Assembly: GCA_963796455.1 (NCBI GenBank)
Contig: CAWCLO010000010.1
Coordinates: forward strand, 704,001-768,000
DNA length: 64,000 nucleotides
Reading direction: 5' to 3'
DNA from: Candidatus Sulfomarinibacteraceae bacterium
Lineage (GTDB): Bacteria > Acidobacteriota > Thermoanaerobaculia > Thermoanaerobaculales > Sulfomarinibacteraceae
The notes under the pieces are model-generated. The model was not told where the DNA came from. It did no database searches and saw nothing but the letters and a program-made list of their open reading frames with translations. Of this stretch, positions 15,050 through 55,300 are shown in pieces (position 1 is the stretch's first letter; the number at the start of each line of letters is the position of its first letter). The translations under genes were made by a program, and so were the position numbers.

Positions 15050-15525
15050 ACCTGGATACGGGATCCAGGTCACAGGATTCATCGCACACCGTCCTCCCTC
15101 TCCGATCCCGCTCCCGAAAGGGTGCATGGGAGAAAGGGGGAAAGGGAGAACGCCCGCAACACGATGCTCGGTACTCGATGCTGGATCACTCTTTTCCAAG
15201 AGAGAGCCTCGGACAGCGTACAGGGACAGGGAACGGCTGACAGCGACAACGAACAGGAGTCAGCGGCAGCATTCAGTCATCAGCGGCTGTCTTCAGCGAC
15301 AGCGTCCAGTCGACCGGTATGGAGAGCTGAAATCAAGACTTTGGTCGAGCAAACGGCAGGTCATCGCACGGACCTGATCGCTGCCCCTGATCTCTGCCTC
15401 TGAACACTGATCCCTGTCGCTGACGCTGGACAATGTCCCTGCCGCTGCAATTCCTGCACAGAGACGGAAACAGAGAAGGGCGCCTGGAAGCTTTTGCGAC
15501 ATCCAGCGTCCAGCATCCAGGTGGT
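15050..15525. repeat. Nested low-complexity inverted repeat arms (7-mer GATGCTG, 6-mer CAGCGA/CAGGGA, 8-mer GGGAGAAA)
   Basis: GATGCTG-type arm ~15163-15186 mirrors 15501-15520. CAG-hexamer arm ~15213-15310 mirrors the CTG-hexamer arm ~15373-15448. Confidence 0.7.
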
Positions 15526-15745: not shown

Positions 15746-15794
15746 GAAATCCGAAATCCGAAATCCGAAATCCGAAATCCGAAATCCGAAATTC
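15746..15794. repeat. Heptamer tandem array (GAAATCC)x6 plus one degenerate unit
   Basis: Six perfect copies at 15746-15787, immediately downstream of the mnmA stop. Confidence 0.97.
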
Positions 15795-25443: not shown

Positions 25444-26496
25444 TTATTTTTGTTGAGCCGCGAACATGGGGAATGAGGGAAAAAGTCGAGTTTGCGTTGA
25501 GGTGATCAACCCATTCCGAACGAGACTCCGACTAAGGAGCACGAATGCGAGGGGAAAAGCCCACCGCGAGAATCGGTTGAACCCGGCCGCGCGCTCCTCG
25601 GTCATGGAGCTCGTCAACGCCACCTGGATCAGAGCGACAAAGACCATGATGGTTGCACCGAGGAGAAAGTAGTCGAGGCGGGTGAGGTAAGAGACCGGTG
25701 GCAACGATTGTCCGAGGAGGAAGCGGTAGGCGATGAGAGTCAGCATCGAGGTCACCGCGACACTCAAGCGGGGACCGATGTTTTCGGCGCTGAGCCAGAA
25801 GACCACCCAGGACATGAAAACGATGATGGCGACCGAGATAAAAGCCTTGCCGACATAAAAGCCGAGATGCCGGCGAGCCTCGAAGAAACCCTCCACACCG
25901 GGGATTTCCCGTCCTCCGGGAACGATTGAGTACGGATTCTGCCGCATCAAGAATGAACCGATCGACCAGTCGGGCACCGTCATGGTGGGTGATTGAATGT
26001 CCTTGAAGCCCACGGTGGACGGAGCCATTTCGATCTCGGCCGGAAGATAGCCTGGAATCACCACCTGGAGCGCGAATCGGTGCCGGTCGAGGGGGAAATC
26101 TCGCAGATTGAGGGGCGAGGCGAACTGTCCGTAAAAGCGCTGGCGATAGATGACCGTGCCGTCCGGAGCGATGTCGACCTTTTCGTCAAAGGTCTTCCAC
26201 AAGCGGCGTTGGTTGATGATCTGGACCCGCGGGTTCCAGATGCTGTCGAGTGCTTGTCTGCGGACCCCTTTGATGTCGGCGGCCAGGCGATCGTCCTTCC
26301 ACCGCAACATCATGAAGACATCAGCGGTAAAGCTCTGGTCGGCGCCGTCGATCTTCGAGACATCCAGAAGTACCAATGTGGTATCGACCCGGAGCGGCGT
26401 GCCCTCCTCGCCCGGTCGTGTGCCCGTGAGGTTTTCGGAAGGCGCAGAAACCGAGGCAACCGACATCACAAAGAGCAGAATGAGCAATCGCCGCAT
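25444..26496 (-). CDS. Prokaryotic pentameric ligand-gated ion channel (GLIC/ELIC-like)
   Basis: Signal peptide; WKDDRL, IWNPRV and Pro-loop LRDFPLDRH; four TM helices with LPPVSYLTRLD. The extreme C-terminus may be frameshifted. Confidence 0.88.
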   Translation of the reverse strand: MRRLLILLFVMSVASVSAPSENLTGTRPGEEGTPLRVDTTLVLLDVSKIDGADQSFTADVFMMLRWKDDRLAADIKGVRRQALDSIWNPRVQIINQRRLWKTFDEKVDIAPDGTVIYRQRFYGQFASPLNLRDFPLDRHRFALQVVIPGYLPAEIEMAPSTVGFKDIQSPTMTVPDWSIGSFLMRQNPYSIVPGGREIPGVEGFFEARRHLGFYVGKAFISVAIIVFMSWVVFWLSAENIGPRLSVAVTSMLTLIAYRFLLGQSLPPVSYLTRLDYFLLGATIMVFVALIQVALTSSMTEERAAGFNRFSRWAFPLAFVLLSRSLVRNGLITSTQTRLFPSFPMFAAQQK

Positions 26497-27435: not shown

Positions 27436-27551
27436 CAGTTTCCTCGAAGCCAAGCGCTTCAAACGAATCGCTGAAAAGCTGAATTGAGGTGGTGCAGTCG
27501 CACCACCTTTTTCTTGGGTTAAGATTCTCGGACCCAGGCAGGAGGAAGTTG

Positions 27552-28880
27552 ATGATGTCAAAGAATCGGGCGGGCGGATTTCAAGGTTATTTCGAGTGGT
27601 TCGTCCGCTCCGAGGTCACGGGCAGTGTGCTGCTGCTGGCGTGCACTGTGGTGGCCCTCGTATGGGCCAACTCGCCCTGGGCCGACACCTACTTCGACCT
27701 CCTCCACACATATGTCGGCGTTTCATGGGGCGATGCGGTCTTCAAGTTGTCGCTCCACCACTGGATCAACGACGGCCTGATGGTCATCTTCTTCTTTGTC
27801 GTCGGTCTCGAGATCAAGCGCGAGTTGGTGGTCGGCGAACTGTCGTCGATCGAAAAGGCGAGCCTGCCTGTGGCGGCGGCCATCGGCGGCATGGTGGTGC
27901 CGGCGGCACTGTTCTTCTTCATCAACGCCGGGAGCGAGGGTGCACGGGGTTGGGGCATCCCGATGGCCACCGACATCGCGTTTGCGCTCGGCGTGCTGGC
28001 CATTTTCGGCTCCAGGGCACCGCTCGGGCTCAAGGTTTTTCTTACCGCCCTCGCCATCGCCGATGATCTCGGTGCGGTGGCGGTGATCGCGATTTTCTAT
28101 ACCGAAAAGATCAACATCGCCGCCCTCGGCGTCGGGTTCGTTCTGCTGGTACTGCTCTTTGCTGCAGTCCAACTCAACATTCGTCGCAGGGGATTCATCT
28201 ATCTGTTGATGATCGGCGTGTGGCTCGCGGTCTTTGCCTCTGGGATTCACGCCACGGTTGCTGGAATCCTGATGGCGATGATCATCCCGGTCCGACCGCG
28301 GATCGACCCGCACAGCTTTATCGACTCGACCGAAGCGCGGTTGGATCGCTTCAAACAGAAGGAACTCTCGCGAGAAAGCCTGATCAGCGATTACGAACAA
28401 TTGGAAATCGTCGAGGGCATCCACAGACGAGCCGAAGACACATTGCCTACCGGTCTGGTCCTGGAGCACTACCTGCATCCGATTCAGGTGTGGCTGATTC
28501 TGCCGCTCTTTGCCCTCGCCAACGCCGGTGTGGCCATCGGCGGTGATCTGATGGCGGTGCTGTCGAACCCGCTCGCTCTCGGCGTCATCGTCGGTCTGGT
28601 GGTCGGCAAACCGGTCGGTATCGGCCTGCTGAGTTGGCTGGCGGTGAAAAGCGGTCGCGGCGCGTTGCCGGAGGGGGTGACCTGGCTTCAGGTCGTAGGT
28701 GCCGGTTGTCTTGCCGGCATCGGATTCACCATGTCGCTCTTCATAGCCGACCTCGCTTTTGACAACGAAACGCTCATCGCCACCGCCAAGATCGGGATCA
28801 TCGCGGCGTCGCTCGTTTCGGGGGTCTTGGGATTCGTGATTTTGTCAAAATCTCTGCCGAAGGCTCCCGACTCAAAATGA
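27552..28880 (+). CDS. nhaA: Na+/H+ antiporter NhaA
   Basis: WINDGLM, GLEIKRE, GWGIPMATDIAF, LAIADDLGA and AGIGFTMSLFI. Confidence 0.96.
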   Translation: MMSKNRAGGFQGYFEWFVRSEVTGSVLLLACTVVALVWANSPWADTYFDLLHTYVGVSWGDAVFKLSLHHWINDGLMVIFFFVVGLEIKRELVVGELSSIEKASLPVAAAIGGMVVPAALFFFINAGSEGARGWGIPMATDIAFALGVLAIFGSRAPLGLKVFLTALAIADDLGAVAVIAIFYTEKINIAALGVGFVLLVLLFAAVQLNIRRRGFIYLLMIGVWLAVFASGIHATVAGILMAMIIPVRPRIDPHSFIDSTEARLDRFKQKELSRESLISDYEQLEIVEGIHRRAEDTLPTGLVLEHYLHPIQVWLILPLFALANAGVAIGGDLMAVLSNPLALGVIVGLVVGKPVGIGLLSWLAVKSGRGALPEGVTWLQVVGAGCLAGIGFTMSLFIADLAFDNETLIATAKIGIIAASLVSGVLGFVILSKSLPKAPDSK

Positions 28881-28893
28881 CCGACCCGGTTCA

Positions 28894-29436
28894 ATCGCTA
28901 TCGCTATCGGAATCGCTATCGCTATCGAACTTGTACTTGAATCAGGTGCAGAGTAGGTCAGCACGGTTTGGTTCTCGAGGAGGAGCTCGTGGTATTCGCG
29001 CATGAAAGCCTGGATGTGTACCGGTTAGCCTTGGAGTACGTGGGTTTCGTGTTTGAGCTCTCTGATCGGCTCGAGGGGTCGGTACGCCATGCGCGAGATC
29101 AACTCCTGCGTGCGTCGCAGTCGATTCCACTCAACATCGCGGAGGGCAATGGAAAGGCGTCCGATGGCGACCGACGGAGATTTTTTGAGATTGCTCGTGG
29201 TTCAACTCTCGAGTGCGCTGCGATACAGGATGTGTTGCAGGTTCAGGGCATCCTGAGTGCGAATGAAAATCAGGTCGCCAAGGAGACGCTTGATCGTATC
29301 GCGGCGATGTTGACGAGGCTTGGCGGAAGAGGTTACTCGGTTGGGGAAGAGATCGACGGGTACGGTGACGCAAAGGACTGACCAAACGCCCTGCCATTCG
29401 ATCCGATAGCGATAGCGATAGCGATTCCGATAGCGA
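28894..29436. mobile_element. Candidate element: four-helix-bundle gene enclosed by inverted ATCGCT hexamer arrays
   Basis: 28901-28927 is the exact reverse complement of 29410-29436 (27 bp), including the variant ATCGGA unit. Mobility is inferred, not shown. Confidence 0.6.
28989..29381 (+). CDS. Four helix bundle protein (23S rRNA-IVS protein / bAvd-like family)
   Basis: FAHESLDVY..A, DQLLRASQSIPLNIAEG and FFEIARGSTLEC. RBS GAGGAGGAG precedes GTG 28989. Confidence 0.92.
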   Translation: MVFAHESLDVYRLALEYVGFVFELSDRLEGSVRHARDQLLRASQSIPLNIAEGNGKASDGDRRRFFEIARGSTLECAAIQDVLQVQGILSANENQVAKETLDRIAAMLTRLGGRGYSVGEEIDGYGDAKD

Positions 29437-29505
29437 AGCGCCCGCACATTGCTGCGCGGGCTATGAATGCGCGAAGAGGAGTGATGCCGTGACTGGAATC
29501 GGTTG

Positions 29506-30159
29506 TTACCAGCGGAAACCTACGTTGATCGGCATGAATGTCGAGGTGGACTCGGTTCCCACCCAGTGGTACTTGGCCTCGAGGTAGATCACCGAGTCGC
29601 TCTCGAGCCTGAAGGTGATCGCCGCGCCGATGGTGTAGCCGAAGTCGATCGACGACACGGAATCGTCGACCACGGCGCCAGGGGTGCACCCCCACCAACA
29701 CCACCAGGGATAATGGGGGTCGTAATTCGGTCCGCAGGTATAACCCGGCTCGGTCAGCTGGCCCTGGCTGTAGTAGGCGCCGAACCCTGCCTGGACGTTG
29801 AAGCCGACACGACCACCGGTCTTGAGTGCCCAGATTCCGCCCGCGGTCAGCGACCAGATCGACGCATCGCCCCCCGAAGACTCGTAAAAGTCGAGGGCGT
29901 CCCGGGTGATGCCGAAATCGTTGTATCCCAGTTCCATGACGATGCCGAGGGGCCAGTCATTTGGTTTGTAGGTCGCGCCGCCGCTGATGTTCCAGCCGCC
30001 CGAGAGAATATTGCCGGTGTCGCCCTGGGGCGACGAATAACCTGCTGCGATGTGGCCGAACCATTGTTGCCAGCTCTTGTCGAACTGGGCGTCAGCGGTT
30101 GCCGGGACCAGCACCAGCCCGAAAATCACGGCCAGAATCGGCAGACGTTTCAGATTCAT
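29506..30159 (-). CDS. Outer-membrane beta-barrel protein (OmpA-like 8-stranded) with a Cys/Trp-rich loop
   Basis: Signal peptide, alternating beta strands, C-terminal VGFRW. Confidence 0.8.
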   Translation of the reverse strand: MNLKRLPILAVIFGLVLVPATADAQFDKSWQQWFGHIAAGYSSPQGDTGNILSGGWNISGGATYKPNDWPLGIVMELGYNDFGITRDALDFYESSGGDASIWSLTAGGIWALKTGGRVGFNVQAGFGAYYSQGQLTEPGYTCGPNYDPHYPWWCWWGCTPGAVVDDSVSSIDFGYTIGAAITFRLESDSVIYLEAKYHWVGTESTSTFMPINVGFRW

Positions 30160-39518: not shown

Positions 39519-39622
39519 GGAGCAGAGGAGCAGAGGAGCAGAGGAGCAGAGGAGCAGAGGAGCAGAGGAGCAGAGGAGCAGAGGAGCAGAGGAGCAGAGG
39601 AGCAGAGGAGCAGAGGAGCAGA
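39519..39622 (+). repeat. Octamer tandem array (GGAGCAGA)x13
   Basis: 13 perfect copies counted, starting 5 nt after the upstream stop. A pyrimidine-rich counterpart lies at 39662-39700. Confidence 0.97.
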
Positions 39623-39726
39623 GGAGACCTGCTCCTTATCACGTACAGAGCTTCCGGTACGGTTCTCCCTTTCCCCTCTTTCTCCCTTTCTCCCTTTCGG
39701 GAACGGGAATCGGAACTGTCGTTCAA

Positions 39727-39847
39727 GATGTCATCCTGAGCGAAGCGCCTTCGGCGCGCAGTCGAAGGATCTGCGGACAGGTGAGCTTCGGTTCATCTCA
39801 TAGATCCTTCGACTACGCCCCTGTGGGGCTGCGCTCAGGATGACATC
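39727..39847. repeat. REP-like branched palindrome (GTCATCCTGAGCG...CGCTCAGGATGAC)
   Basis: 16-bp terminal inverted repeat, inner 13-bp IR AGTCGAAGGATCT/AGATCCTTCGACT, and two side hairpins. A partial second copy lies at 39937-39959. Confidence 0.85.
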
Positions 39848-40044
39848 GGGAGGCGAGACTCCCATACAGGAGAAGTCGGTGACGGGTGGTTCTCCCTCTC
39901 ACCCTTTCTCCCTTTCGGGAACGGGATCGGAACTGTCGCTCAGGATGACATCGGGAGGCAACATTCGCAGACGTGCGAAATCAGTACCGAATGGTTTTCC
40001 TTTCTCCCTCTGCCCCTCTGCAACAACAAGGCGTTAGATGATGT

Positions 40045-44410: not shown

Positions 44411-45800
44411 ATGAAGGACGCGGCCAAGAACAGCGACGAACGATCCGGCGTGGTGGTCCGGATCTGGCGTTCGATCTTTCCCCGCCCGATCATTCCGCGG
44501 ACCGATAAAGATCGCCGTCGCGTCATCCTCGACTTTTTCGTGCTGCATATGCGGCCGGTACGGGTTCGCCGGAGCACCATCGGCTACACCCATACCTTCG
44601 GTCTCGGTGGCAGTTCGCTGGTTCTGATTGCTCGTCATGATCGCCACCGGGGTCCTGCTCATGCTGTCCTACGAGCCGACACCGGCTCGCGCCTACTCGT
44701 CCATCGTCGATATCCGGGATGGCATGCTCTTTGGCGGGCTGGTGCGAAACATCCACTACTGGAGCGCCAATCTACTGGTGGCGGTGGTTCTCCTCCACCT
44801 GCTCCGGGTCATGTTCACCGGCGCTTTTCACGGAACTCGAAGATTCAACTGGGTGATCGGTTTGGCTTTGCTGGGCGCTGTTTTGGCCTCCAATTTTACC
44901 GGTTATCTTCTGCCCTGGGACCAACTCGCCTACTGGGCCGTCACCATCGTGACCGGCATGCTTTCCTATGTGCCGTGGATCGGTGAGTGGCTGCAGGGGG
45001 TGGCTCGCGGAGGAGCGGAGATCGGACCGGCGACCCTGGTCATTTTCTACTCCTTCCACACGACCCTGCTTCCGGTCTTCCTGGTAGTGCTCATGGGCTT
45101 CCATTTCTGGCGGGTGCGCAAGGCCGGTGGTGTGGTCGACCCGAGGCCGGTGGAAACGATCGACCAGGACAAGCCGGAGTACGTCTCGACCTTGCCCGCG
45201 CTCCTGATGCGCGAGTTGGCTGCGGCCCTTGCATTGATCGCGATCGTGGTCGTGTTGGCGACGTTTTTCGATGCGCCCCTGGGCGCCCCGGCCAATGCCG
45301 GAATGAGCACCAACCCGGCCAAGGCGCCGTGGTACTTCGTCGGTTTCCAGGAGCTCCAGCTGCACTTTCATCCGATTTTCGCGGTGGTGGTGATCCCGCT
45401 GTTGGCAGTGATTGGTCTGGCGGCGATTCCGTATTTTCGTTACAAGCCTGAAAAGGCCGGTCCCTGGTTCCTGTCCGAGACCGGGCGCCGGTCGTCGACC
45501 ATCTCGTTCCTGGTGGGTGTATTCGTTACGACACTTCTCGTTGTGGTCGATGAGCTCCTGCTCCAGCCGGGCGCAGGGCTTCCCACCGCAATCGGCCGCG
45601 GTCTGGTGCCGGTGGCGATGTTCGCAGCGGCGGTGGCGGCCTTCCGGTGGCTGATGGTGCGTCGATTCGGTCTTTCGAAATCTGAAATCGTGCAGGCCCT
45701 CTTCGTGCTCTTTTTCTCGTCCTTGGTCATCCTGACGGTCATCGGTGTCTGGTTCCGAGGCCCCGGTATGGCGCTCGTCTGGCCGTGGGGTGTCGGATGA
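44411..45800 (+). CDS. Cytochrome b (fused b6 + subunit IV-like), frameshift near 44630
   Basis: FGLGG; heme His in RNIHYW, LHLLR, FHT and [23 protein letters not shown] at the PEWY position. Confidence 0.88.
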
Positions 45801-46342
45801 GAAAGGGAGAAAGGGAGAGAGGGAGCAGGGGAGAAGGGGAGAGAGGGAGAGCCCCCCTCGAACCGACACGCCGAGGATTCTTGGGTCGCCTGTGGCTCCT
45901 CCTGGGTGGGGCTGCGGTGGCGGAGGCGGTGTGGGTTGTGAGCGACTTCATCAAGCCCCGTCGGCGAGGCGCGACGCCAATCGACGATGCGACGGTGATC
46001 ATCGCCGGGCCGGTAGATCGCTTTGCGCCGGGGACGGTCACCGCCTTTCCTGAAGGCCGTTTTTACCTCGCTCGTCTTGATGACGGCGGCTTCCTCGCCC
46101 TCGACCGAGAATGCACCCACCTCGGGTGTACGGTGCCGTGGGTTGCCGACGAGGGTCGGTTTGTTTGCCCCTGCCACGCTTCGGCATTCGATATAACCGG
46201 GAATGTCTTGAGCCCGCCGGCGCCCCGTCCGCTCGACATTTACCCGGTGCGCATCGAAAACCAGATCGTCAAGGTCGATACCGGCAACCGGGTTCGGCGC
46301 CGTACCGCCGACTCGGCACAGGGTGAAATCCATGACGGTTGA
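45797..46342 (+). CDS. Rieske 2Fe-2S protein (Tat-exported)
   Basis: TRRGFL Tat motif; CTHLGC and CPCHAS boxes; ATGA overlap with the cytochrome b stop. Confidence 0.92.
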
Positions 46343-52212: not shown

Positions 52213-52302
52213 ATCGTGGGCAGGAAGGAAAGGGGGACCACCAACCCTCCCGTGAGTTCGAGGGCTCGATCTCCCTTTCTCCCTCTGCTCCCCTTCTCCC
52301 TT

Positions 52303-55300
52303 TCACCCTACCTCGAACCCCGGCGCATTGACCGCAACCATGGCCTCGAGGTTCTGAACCCGTTGTTCACGGGCCCAGCGCTCCACCGGCGCGATGAGCT
52401 CGCGGCCTTCGTCGCCGCCGATGAGGTGGCCAAGCCTGAAACGTGCGCAGTTCGCATACAGGCCCAAACGGTCGGATTCGAACTCGCGGACCGCTTTTTC
52501 GAGCTCGCTTACGGCGCGCACAGCGTTTCGCTCGCGGTGGGCCAGGGCGGCGCGGATGAAATGACCGCCGCCCCGGGCGAAATGGGGTTTCATGCGAGAA
52601 AGGATCCGGGCGCTCCTGCGAGCCTGATCGAGAGCCTCCTCTGCCCGGCCGGCCTGGGACGCCGTTGCCAAGGCGGCGCGGCCGCGAAGAAAGTTCATAT
52701 AGACCCGGACGATCTCCACGTGGAGCAGCAGAGCCCGCCGCAGCAGCGGCCACTCGGTTGTGACGGACTCCAGGGCGTCGGACGATCGTCCCTCGTAGAG
52801 GGCGATCTCGCTCTTCGCGCTCAGCAGGGTGAAGTGGTAGACCTGGTACTCCACATCCCGCCAGTGATCCTCGACGTCGGCGATGGCCTCCCGGGCACCT
52901 TGAGGGTCGTCTGCGGCGAGCCAGACAAAGGGCCCGCCAAAGGTCGTGAGCTGGCTCTCGGCCAGCACCGCACCACGCTCGCGGGTGGTGGCGAGAAGCG
53001 AGTCCTGACGGTCGGCGAGTTCGGCGAGGTCGCCCATGTAGTAACAGTCCCAGTAGGGGAACGAGTGGCTCTGGTCCAGCTCCCACGCCGCACCGATGCA
53101 CTCGTCGCGAAAGATCCTTGCTGCGGCATCACCGTGGCGCCGCGAGGTCTCGAAGTCGCAGAGGAAGAATGCCGCGACGCTGCGCGCCAGATCCACCGTG
53201 CCCCGTGCCATGGGCTCATCGAGCTCGCGCGCGAGTTGGCCGGCCTTGTCGAGCAGGCGGTCAACCGTCCCTCGAAATCGTTGACCCACCATGGCCACGT
53301 GCGAGGCCTCCCACGCAAGGGCGCGGGAAATCCGAAAGGGTTCGCCCGCCTTGAGCGAAAGGAGCAGATTGTGGTTCTGCAGATCGGCGGCAGGAATGGG
53401 GTCGATCATGGTGATGCCGCCGGCAACCTCCCACGACAAATCGATGCGGTCGAGCTTCTCCTGCGGGATCTGTGTCGGCTCTCGGCGGCGAAAGCGGGTG
53501 CCGCGGAGCATGAGGGCAAAGCGCCTGCGGATCAGCGAAAAGAGAGCGGCCCGCCGGGTCGGGGGCAGCTTGAGCCCGATGTGATCGAGCACCCCGCGAA
53601 AGGCCTGGCGCCCCTCGTCGATATGACCGGCGACGCAATACTGATAGCCGGCCCGTTCGAGCAGCCGGAAGGCCTCGTCACCCTCGATCCCCTCGGCGGC
53701 CTCGAGATACTCCCTGGCCGCCTCGGCTCCGCGCCCGGCGTTGGCCAGGGCGTCGGCGAGCTTGCTGCGGAGCCTTCGCTCTTCGTCCGGGCCGAGATCG
53801 CGAAGCGCGATCGTCTCGCGATACAGGGTTGCCGCCCGGTCGAAGGCCAGGGCCCTGGCGGCCTGTTCCGCCGCCTGCTCGTAGAAACCACCGGCCAGAG
53901 CCAGTTCGCCGGCCCCGTGGTAGTGGTTCGCGATGGTTTCAGGGTCTGCCTTGCCTATGGCCTCGAGAGAACGTGCCAGACCCAGGTGGTGTCGGCGGCG
54001 GGTCACCTCGTCGAGATGCTCGACCACGCTCTCGCGGATCCGGTCGTGGAAGGCCTCGATGTCGTCGTTCAGCCCGGGACCGGTTCGACGAATGAGATGA
54101 CCGGCGCGGAGGGTGGCGATTCCCGGCTGGCCCGATGCATTGATGCCTGAAGCGTCGTAGGCGTGGCGCAGCGGCATCGGTCGGCCGGCGACGGCGATCA
54201 CCTCGAGCATTCGGCGGGGAGTTTCCGGCAATCGTTGAACCCGCGCCCACAGGGCCTCGTCGAGATCGACCTGGCTGAGAGCGGTGTCGCCGCCGTCGTG
54301 TTGGAGATCCAAGCGGGCCTGGCTGGTCAACTCGTAGACGAAATAGGGGTTGCCGCCGGACTCGCGCGCAATCGATTCGGCGCGTCCGCGGATGTTGTCG
54401 CCGGTGTCCCCGAGGAGGTCGACGGCGAGCGCCAGGGAATCCTCTGCCGACAAAGGCCCAACCTCGATCTCGTCGATCACGACCTTTTCGTTGTCAGATG
54501 ATCCGGGTGAAGGCAGCGCCAGAAGGCAGGGGCTCGTCTCTCGATACTCGCTGCGATAGCTGGCGAGAAAGAGCAGGCGCGGTGGAAACCGCGCCTGGAC
54601 GGCGTCTCTGAGAAAAACCGCGCTGTCGGCGTCGCCCCACTGGAGATCATCGATGTAGACCACCAGTCGTTTCCGTTCGCCGATTCGGCGCAGCAATTCC
54701 GCCAGGGCGTCAAAAGCGACTCTCCGAAGCTCAAAAGGATCGGGGATGTTGCGCGGCGGCGCGAGCCTGACCCCATCGACGCGTTCGAGAACCGGGAAAA
54801 TGCGAGCCAGGGCGGCGACGTCGGAAGGCAGGACCTCGCGACTCTCATGATCGGGCAACGGTGAGCAGGAGACGGCTCAGCGAATCGATCAGGCTGTCGA
54901 GTGCTTTGTAGGGAACCGATTCCTGTTCGTAGCACCGGCCTGCGAGGACGACGGTGTCATCCGCTTCCTCGACGCTGGTCAGGAAGCGGTTGATCAGTGC
55001 GCTCTTGCCGGCGCCCGAACGGCCGTGGATGTGGAGCATGTGAGCCATGGCCGTCGTGCACCTCGGCCATCGCGCGGTGCAGGGTGTCGAGTTGATGCTG
55101 GCGGCCGATAAACGGCAGCCTGACTCTCGGTATCGGTGCCTTCGGCCTCCACATCGGGCATCTCGACGCGCAGAGCCTCCAGCAGTTCGTCGCCCGAGGG
55201 GCGGTCTTCCGGTTCGCGGGAGAGCAGGGCGGAACAGATTCGGGCCAGGTCCTCCGGGAGCTTCGGCACCAGATCTGTCGGTCGGGGCGGGTCCTTTTTC

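Follow-up and report, generated by a model that had tools for sequence, protein, structure and literature searches.

A four-helix-bundle gene between mirrored hexamer arrays belongs to a widespread, free-standing family of repeat-armed cassettes

The window, the 64,000-nt stretch of DNA analysed here, carries behind its nhaA gene an intact member of a widespread, repeat-armed and free-standing cassette family. In this family, the gene and its arms travel together across unrelated neighbourhoods and phyla, the repeat unit follows the protein lineage, and gene-less arms are dispersed through genomes. Our preferred reading, to which we assign a probability of about 0.5, is that the cassette is a promoterless selfish element whose predicted pentameric product binds arms of five or six units and aids spread, while borrowed enzymes move the cassette.

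The cassette and its slot behind nhaA

The cassette at the nhaA junction was confirmed as real and comprises a hexamer arm, a four-helix-bundle ORF and a mirrored hexamer arm, laid out as follows.

27489..28880, + strand: host nhaA Na+/H+ antiporter gene (profile match)
28894..28929, + strand: left arm, six ATCGNN hexamers with an RTCG core, period 6
28930..28988, + strand: leader with a probable ribosome-binding site (GGAGG at about 28979-28983, by inspection)
28989..29381, + strand: four-helix-bundle gene, 130 aa (TIGR02436 / PF05635; fold of Xcc0516, BT_0352 and bAvd)
29402..29437, - strand: right arm, six mirrored hexamers
29438..29495, strand not given: host G+C hairpin and downstream segment, right edge of the nhaA slot
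29506..30159, - strand: convergent host gene, 217 aa, without a Pfam match

The initial annotation had seen six ATCGCT-type hexamers before the gene and a mirrored array after it. Both arrays have six units at these positions, and those of the left arm read, in order, ATCGCT, ATCGCT, ATCGGA, ATCGCT, ATCGCT and ATCGAA. The perfect pairing that it reported was also found, 28901-28927 being 100% complementary to 29410-29436 over 27 nt (88% for the arms over 33 nt). RNA folding predicts a stem in which the two arms enclose the ORF (z -3.6), in agreement with the stem that it had proposed. As described there, the left arm starts 13 nt after the nhaA stop codon (28878-28880), and the cassette lies opposite a convergent gene that ends at 29506. 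The product of this gene is a probable outer-membrane beta-barrel, and a 47% homolog of it adjoins nhaA in the same-genus genome G011.

The GTG at 28989, behind the GGAGG, is likely the start codon of the four-helix-bundle gene. The 59-nt leader (28930..28988) exceeds that of most relatives; the arm ends at most 10 nt from the aligned start in 38 of 58 loci. The GC3 of the gene is 0.62, compared with 0.76 and 0.80 for its neighbours. No sigma-70-type promoter was found in 28700-29700, and nhaA is the probable source of read-through transcription of the cassette. An Rfam scan of the cassette gave no match. The initial annotation had noted neither a transposase nor a reverse transcriptase (RT) in the window, and neither domain was found in its 43 further ORFs at E<=1e-5. 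Elsewhere in the window, 25447-26496 (- strand) encodes a bacterial homolog of pentameric ligand-gated ion channels (Pfam Neur_chan_LBD, Neur_chan_memb).

The nhaA loci of 19 same-genus genomes were compared; two were cut by contig ends, leaving 17 that could be scored. The cassette occupies the slot in two of them, this genome (G000) and G018, where the protein is 72% identical and the arms are shorter. In G011 the junction of nhaA with the barrel gene is the same, but a degenerate hairpin without a gene lies there; five slots hold other repeat arrays, and nine hold none (one of the nine with a flank of about 65 nt). The hairpin 3' of the right arm and the segment downstream of it (29438..29495) are kept after nhaA in G003, G006 and G016, each of which has a different array in the slot; this hairpin is terminator-like in those three genomes and is not called a terminator in this one. 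By nhaA, G000 and G018 are not sisters, whereas the cassette proteins of the two group as sisters within the sample (support 0.85; pN 0.21, pS 0.86); the G016 row was left out of the dN/dS comparison because of misalignment. These relationships could reflect one old insertion with many losses or repeated use of one slot.

Alignment of this junction had been proposed earlier as a check for an empty site or a target duplication. No target duplication or flanking direct repeat was found at the cassette locus, and no clean empty allele among the 17. A syntenic gene inherited vertically across relatives without arms, which would have spoken against the proposal, was not seen: the gene is at this site in two of the 17 genomes, and both have the arms. 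Candidates for an empty nhaA allele in contigs of four DNA runs were rejected; they are arm-to-arm joints with 19-36 other bases and unlike flanks, that is, gene-less hairpins of other loci or organisms.

Relatives, dispersed arrays and paralogs

For comparison across phyla, GTDB contigs offered 540 relatives, of which the best 80 (56-73% identity) were taken and five dropped because of short flanks. The scored relatives come from Verrucomicrobiota, Desulfobacterota, Acidobacteriota, Gammaproteobacteria and others. An RTCGNN array lies upstream in 67 of the 75 and a mirrored array downstream in 68, with both arms in 63, compared with 13 of 1525 control windows that have one. The downstream arm starts within the ORF in 57 of 68 relatives, and arm length peaks at five or six units. 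By crude ORF calls, 61 upstream neighbours fall into 60 clusters, and the upstream neighbour is co-directional with the cassette gene in 49 of 61 cases and the downstream neighbour in 36 of 63. The both-armed relatives, these neighbour clusters and the presence of the gene in two of 17 nhaA slots bear out the earlier proposal of an insertable gene-plus-arms cassette. The case for a fixed distance from the upstream stop codon proved weak, as 14 of 48 fall in the range of -10 to 30 nt. No relative of the gene was found in viral contigs.

Arms were compared at 58 loci, after removal of five same-genome copies. Cognate arms share a mean of 15.7 nt in their longest match, versus 10.6 nt for swapped arms (0 of 10000 permutations, in which kin are not independent). 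The long perfect stem of the initial annotation holds at this locus, with its 27 nt, but is imperfect in most relatives, the match being at least 27 nt at 3 of 58 loci; even when the arms are placed in their best register, mismatches affect 177 of 486 spacer positions. Such a stem is at the heart of the main rival to our reading, RNA-level insulation or regulation, which we regard as unlikely: RNase III would free the gene from host transcripts, as in 23S rRNA intervening sequences, and the protein would tune the stability or translation of repeat-bearing RNAs, both its own and those with dispersed host arrays, with benefit to the host and passive spread. [quoted passage not shown] An RNase III gene is present in the genome, the arms pair in predicted folds, 49 of 61 upstream neighbours are co-directional, and most Xanthomonas repeats are reported to be transcribed (PMC4692102). 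The mismatched spacers, however, indicate that pairing is not optimised, and the relaxed selection on private changes of the resident 66-copy family (see below) is left unexplained.

This genome holds 76 arrays of at least four ATCGNN units. Because the exact 27-mer of the arms occurs 11 times in the genome and 360 of 2850 pairs of these arrays have at least 27 nt in common, the 27-bp perfect match shows no special link between the left and right arms; both are consensus members of a dispersed ATCGNN family. The initial annotation had taken the ATCGGA unit in both arms as a sign that they are not independent slippage products. That argument fails, as ATCGGA belongs to the genome-wide family consensus (31 of 76 arrays contain it), and the shared variant was rejected as proof of co-ancestry of the two arms. 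The family as a whole does not look like slippage products, because 55 of the 76 arrays have five or six units. An inward-facing partner lies within 700 nt of 21 of the 76 arrays, and an outward-facing partner of one. A preference of gene-less arrays for convergent gaps was looked for among the 76 and was not found. A crude gene caller placed 22 of the 76 inside ORFs, versus 6 under a stricter test.

The variable dinucleotides of the units hold 1.6 of 4 bits in this genome (219 of 310 are CT) and 2.7 of 4 bits across relatives. That the arms might act as a VIPR-like guide, with RTCG as scaffold and the NN pairs spelling a target, seems to us extremely unlikely. The fixed core with a variable dinucleotide does resemble the GGYNN units of vrRNA (10.64898/2026.10.15.759431), and 67 arrays have 57 distinct NN strings; however, the NN set is small by both measures, there are five or six units rather than 10-12, the arrays are mirrored around the gene, and the protein fold differs.

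PF05635 matches 70 times in the genome, in four single genes and in about 66 copies of one element. Each of the four single genes has its own inverted 6-, 7- or 8-mer arms, and their repeats form dispersed families of 76, 69, 23 and 41-67 arrays; reversed-pattern controls gave 0 for three of the families and, since an uninterrupted ATCGCT run is a mirror repeat, 15 for ATCG. Across the genus, same-period arrays stand on both sides of 27 of 32 scored loci (33 given) and of 3 of 600 ordinary control genes. Together with the 63 of 75 relatives, these counts confirm the enrichment of inverted tandem arms at paralogs that had been proposed as a check. The unit changes with protein identity, from ATCG above about 56% to CTCG at 55%, CCCG at 40-46%, and heptamers or octamers lower. 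The likelihood that an ordinary gene of vertical descent has come to lie between two copies of an abundant repeat by chance is negligible: the genome does hold 76 arrays, and a periodic array of some kind lies upstream of 58 of 600 control genes, but the explanation is refuted by both arms in 63 of 75 relatives of other phyla, by same-period arrays on both sides in only 3 of 600 control genes, and by the lack of the gene at the nhaA site in 15 of 17 genomes.

Further clusters of 7-8-nt repeats (GGAGCAGA, GGGAGAAA, GAAATCC) lie in intergenic parts of the window, at 39519-39916, 15116-15150, 15746-15792, 45799-45850 and 52270-52309. Genome-wide, 7-8-nt arrays form nested composites with conserved spacers, and for several such families the cognate four-helix-bundle gene was found in another place within the genus. 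One composite cluster adjoins a partial integron-integrase-like match with an internal stop (G000:C4:878636-878941, L197). Several units have self-complementary cores (CG, TTAA, AGCT, AATT, GTNAC; loci L131-L138, L003, L147-L152), so both arms could present an identical core on one strand.

The protein, its predicted ligand and spread

The 130-aa protein matches TIGR02436 (67.3 bits against a cut-off of 24, E 1e-18) and PF05635 (75.2 bits against 33.8, E 6e-21) and is 34% identical to Xcc0516 (2GSC, five chains), from which we infer a homopentamer. A single-sequence model (pLDDT 69) has the pentamers 2GSC and 2RLD as top fold matches and also matches bAvd (8UB7, 4DWL); Foldseek gave a probability of 0.99 and a TM of about 0.56 against 8UB7, at 8-11% identity, in agreement with the fold shared with bAvd that the initial annotation gave as established. 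A four-copy complex prediction scored 0.27 against a mark of 0.32 and was not counted as evidence. In the complex of a diversity-generating retroelement (DGR), a single stem-loop is touched by all five Avd protomers, and flipped-out bases sit in crevices where equivalent residues of the different protomers bind them (10.1101/2023.10.23.563531). By analogy, five crevices would fit arms of five or six units.

Residues R41, N49, N54, K56, R62, E67, S72, C76, Q80, D81 and R103 are conserved in 80 of 80 close relatives, and D9 is present in 77. In the sister (CCCG) clade, from which 80 metagenome loci were taken and 62 scored, the two arms of a locus change in step, also where the unit has become CCCTTG, GTCCCC or reversed. 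When all alignment columns of this clade were scanned, those best predicting the CG share of the units were the Asp of the LDVY motif and a helix-4 Arg, which are D9 and R103 here; the two columns were thus chosen after the scan. The helix-4 Arg is lost in two lineages, and CG makes up at most 40% of the units at all nine of their loci, compared with a mean of 86% at the 53 Arg-bearing loci. At 6 of the 53, in four lineages, CG is lost and the Arg kept. A one-to-one Arg-to-CG rule over all lineages was rejected, since distant proteins with an Arg at the R103 position carry units without CG, and so was the notion that CG is invariant in the hexamer clade, since several loci use CCCTTG-type units. 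D9 and R103 are candidate repeat-reading residues, a lead rather than a code. A reversed-orientation unit (GGCACG) was also seen at sister-clade loci L223, L244, L246, L268, L269 and L278; at L223 both arms were seen, and both are flipped.

Under our preferred mechanism, the cassette would lack a promoter of its own and be transcribed by read-through from the upstream gene. The arm-arm stem would bracket the ORF, exposing it to RNase III, and in most relatives would also cover the ribosome-binding site. Each subunit crevice of the ring would accept roughly one repeat unit, much as bAvd accommodates flipped-out bases, and D9 and R103 would read the CG core. DNA cutting and joining would probably be left to borrowed host or element enzymes, and ring-bound arms may favour capture into attC cassettes, into IS4-type ends or, by recombination, into gene-less arrays already present. 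The gene-less arrays would be non-autonomous remnants, in the role that REPINs play with RAYTs.

The 66-copy element, which has terminal inverted ends, offers a view of selection during spread. Sixty-three copies are near full length, at a mean of 90% identity to one copy, and no two are identical; similar expansions were found in G006 (55 matches), G004 (42) and G008 (23). The genome has one IS4-family transposase gene. An internally deleted copy lies at 15166-15520 of the window, nested among other repeat arrays, and keeps its ends and arms but only the 3' end of the ORF. The selection test used the 58 of 61 copies that were colinear. Shared changes comprise 132 synonymous and 56 non-synonymous (omega 0.14-0.19), whereas private changes comprise 38 and 64 (omega 0.57-0.75; Fisher p 7e-8) and are still slightly purified. 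Recombination is heavy, with four gametes at 956 of 1378 site pairs. A spread-aiding protein would leave shared changes purified and private changes relaxed, and the contrast is as expected were a functional protein required for a copy to have descendants. It could also reflect import of already-purified variants, and this element belongs to a different subfamily from the nhaA cassette.

Selection at propagation in this family would also suit a catalytic mobiliser, a new recombinase or nuclease acting on its own arms as a RAYT equivalent with a non-HUH fold. Many polar residues are invariant (80 of 80), a separate dispersed repeat family goes with each of the four single-copy paralogs, and none of the six Y1 transposase genes of the genome is flanked by ATCGNN arrays, a finding on which a RAYT as mobiliser in cis was rejected. 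We nevertheless consider catalysis quite improbable: bAvd, the only homolog with a known role, sits at a distance of about 40 A from the active site and is regarded as non-catalytic (10.1101/2023.10.23.563531), the nhaA locus has no target duplications or fixed ends, and cassettes occur inside the ends of other elements. Very unlikely, in our estimate, is a retro-cassette, in which the ring would recruit an RT in trans to arm-bearing RNA as bAvd does. The fold in common with bAvd speaks for it, as do the few relatives flanked by diverged duplications of the start of a neighbouring gene (83 nt at L067, 31 nt at L100). On the other hand, no RT (PF00078) was found in the genome, which is 90.5% complete, and the 58 copies show no adenine bias (variable sites A 0.54, C 0.65, G 0.51, T 0.45); a route through an RT and adenine mutagenesis was rejected on these two results.

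Vehicles of the cassette were seen in several relatives, in line with our preferred reading. In the relative G251, an ATCG cassette and internally deleted copies start with GTT and end attC-like at dispersed loci, and a GTT...attC-type signature was found in 8 of 63 other relatives. Among these G251 loci (L175-L181), the deleted copies share one internal deletion; the cassette and the copies are attC-bounded at dispersed chromosomal sites and occur also within an array beside genes that by inspection are toxin-antitoxin-like. At L067, L072, L100, L051 and L126, the cassette is flanked by diverged duplications of 25-130 nt, which repeat either the start of a neighbouring gene or the cassette flank and hint that homeologous recombination was the way in. 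The vehicles of the cassette thus vary.

The attC array membership beside toxin-antitoxin-like cassettes also bears on a type III-like addiction module, in which repeat RNA would sequester a toxic ring and gene-less arrays would immunise the host. A tandem-repeat array does lie directly upstream of the gene, and the family has been reported in cas loci (PMC3936711) and immune contexts (PMC10053308). Such a module is nonetheless highly improbable, as PADLOC gave no match for the cassette, the promoter/terminator scan of the locus found no promoter-array-terminator layout, the mirrored downstream arm is left unexplained, and homologs were presumably made in quantity for crystals.

Gene and array abundance are linked loosely. 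In a 201-genome tally (which takes in G063, on whose sequence no claim rests), the five gene-bearing genomes are among the seven with most pattern matches, four of them from one family. Within the family, the gene was found in 3 of the 9 genomes rich in arrays and in 3 of the 68 poor in them, at a threshold set after the fact. With the query used, the gene was not found in the richest and third-richest genomes of the phylum sample, G090 (1420 RTCGNN pattern matches in 5.7 Mb) and G057 (143).

Significance and comparison with known systems

If a protein that binds repeats and aids their spread is confirmed, it would explain short repeats across bacterial genomes that have had no explanation. 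The cassette links three loose ends: the role of S23p/IVP proteins, the spread of ORF-bearing rRNA IVSs and the origin of 6-9-nt arrays. For every protein lineage, the arms of its own cassette are the predicted ligand. With pentamer structures available and two residues proposed to set specificity, a single binding assay could test the idea. A ring protein with a changeable short-repeat specificity could serve as an RNA- or DNA-binding module. More tentatively, S23p/IVP genes may be a very large, undescribed class of selfish elements, in which the ring reads its repeat by a residue-to-base code and spreads itself and gene-less arms; the class would then have given rise to the 6-9-nt repeat families between bacterial genes (among them GGGAATC of Xanthomonas), to rRNA IVSs with an ORF and probably to the DGR accessory protein Avd.

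By the features tested, the cassette is not a member of the IVS, IS, DGR or VIPR classes. It resembles 23S rRNA IVSs in protein family, in a terminal stem of about 28 bp around an S23p-type ORF, in short tandem repeats before the start and in patchy distribution. It differs in lying between protein-coding genes and not inside an rRNA gene, in its hexamer arms and in its genome-wide gene-less arms. ORF-driven mobility of the Coxiella IVS is cited as a hypothesis (PMC4990558), and homology of the family to Avd and its occurrence in cas loci have been described (PMC10053308, PMC3936711). The initial annotation had called the family undescribed; a free-standing cassette outside rRNA had no description in the literature searched, whose scope ended short of subscription journals and preprint supplements.

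With the DGR protein bAvd, the cassette protein shares a fold, and the bAvd pentamer binds RNA with equivalent crevices (10.1101/2023.10.23.563531); in contrast, identity is 8-11%, and the cassette comes without RT, template repeat, variable repeat or adenine-biased change, no PF00078 having been found in the genome and no A bias among the 58 copies of the 66-copy element. VIPR likewise has tandem units with a fixed core and variable dinucleotide beside a small gene, but it is viral, with 10-12 GGYNN units, information-rich NN and a Vipr protein (10.64898/2026.10.15.759431), whereas the cassette is cellular and has low-information spacers, five or six units, mirrored arms and another protein. 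Integron attC cassettes and mobile insertion cassettes with IS4 ends are vehicles for some relatives and not the defining unit; the copy behind nhaA uses neither, and by inspection its locus has no GTTRRRY start with an attC end. As to IS elements and MITEs, the window has no transposase domain and the locus no flanking direct repeat.

The heptamer arrays of Xanthomonas and Nostoc come close in being dispersed and intergenic, with a fixed unit number and often in convergent inverted pairs, but they are described as quadruplex-forming and without a cognate gene (PMC4692102). Xanthomonas campestris has 186 GGGAATC arrays, mostly of four units and often in inverted pairs (PMC4692102). Its array 15, for which PMC4692102 S2 Table A gives no inverted partner, runs over the XCC0516 start codon, and the product of that gene is Xcc0516, the solved pentamer 2GSC; the main text of PMC4692102 makes no mention of xcc0516, S23 or a helix bundle.

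A working analogy is the REPtron (PMC3116915, PMC3733652), in which a gene lies between inverted repeats that are also dispersed intergenically, with lineage-specific pairing and loose co-occurrence. The cassette has such a dispersed repeat (76 arrays), but PF05635 stands in place of the HUH Y1 tyrosine transposase, the arms are tandem 6-mers rather than palindromic REPs, and most arrays stand singly rather than as doublets, 21 of 76 being paired. By this analogy, the cassette would work like a REPtron without the transposase, yet it is no member of the REPtron family.
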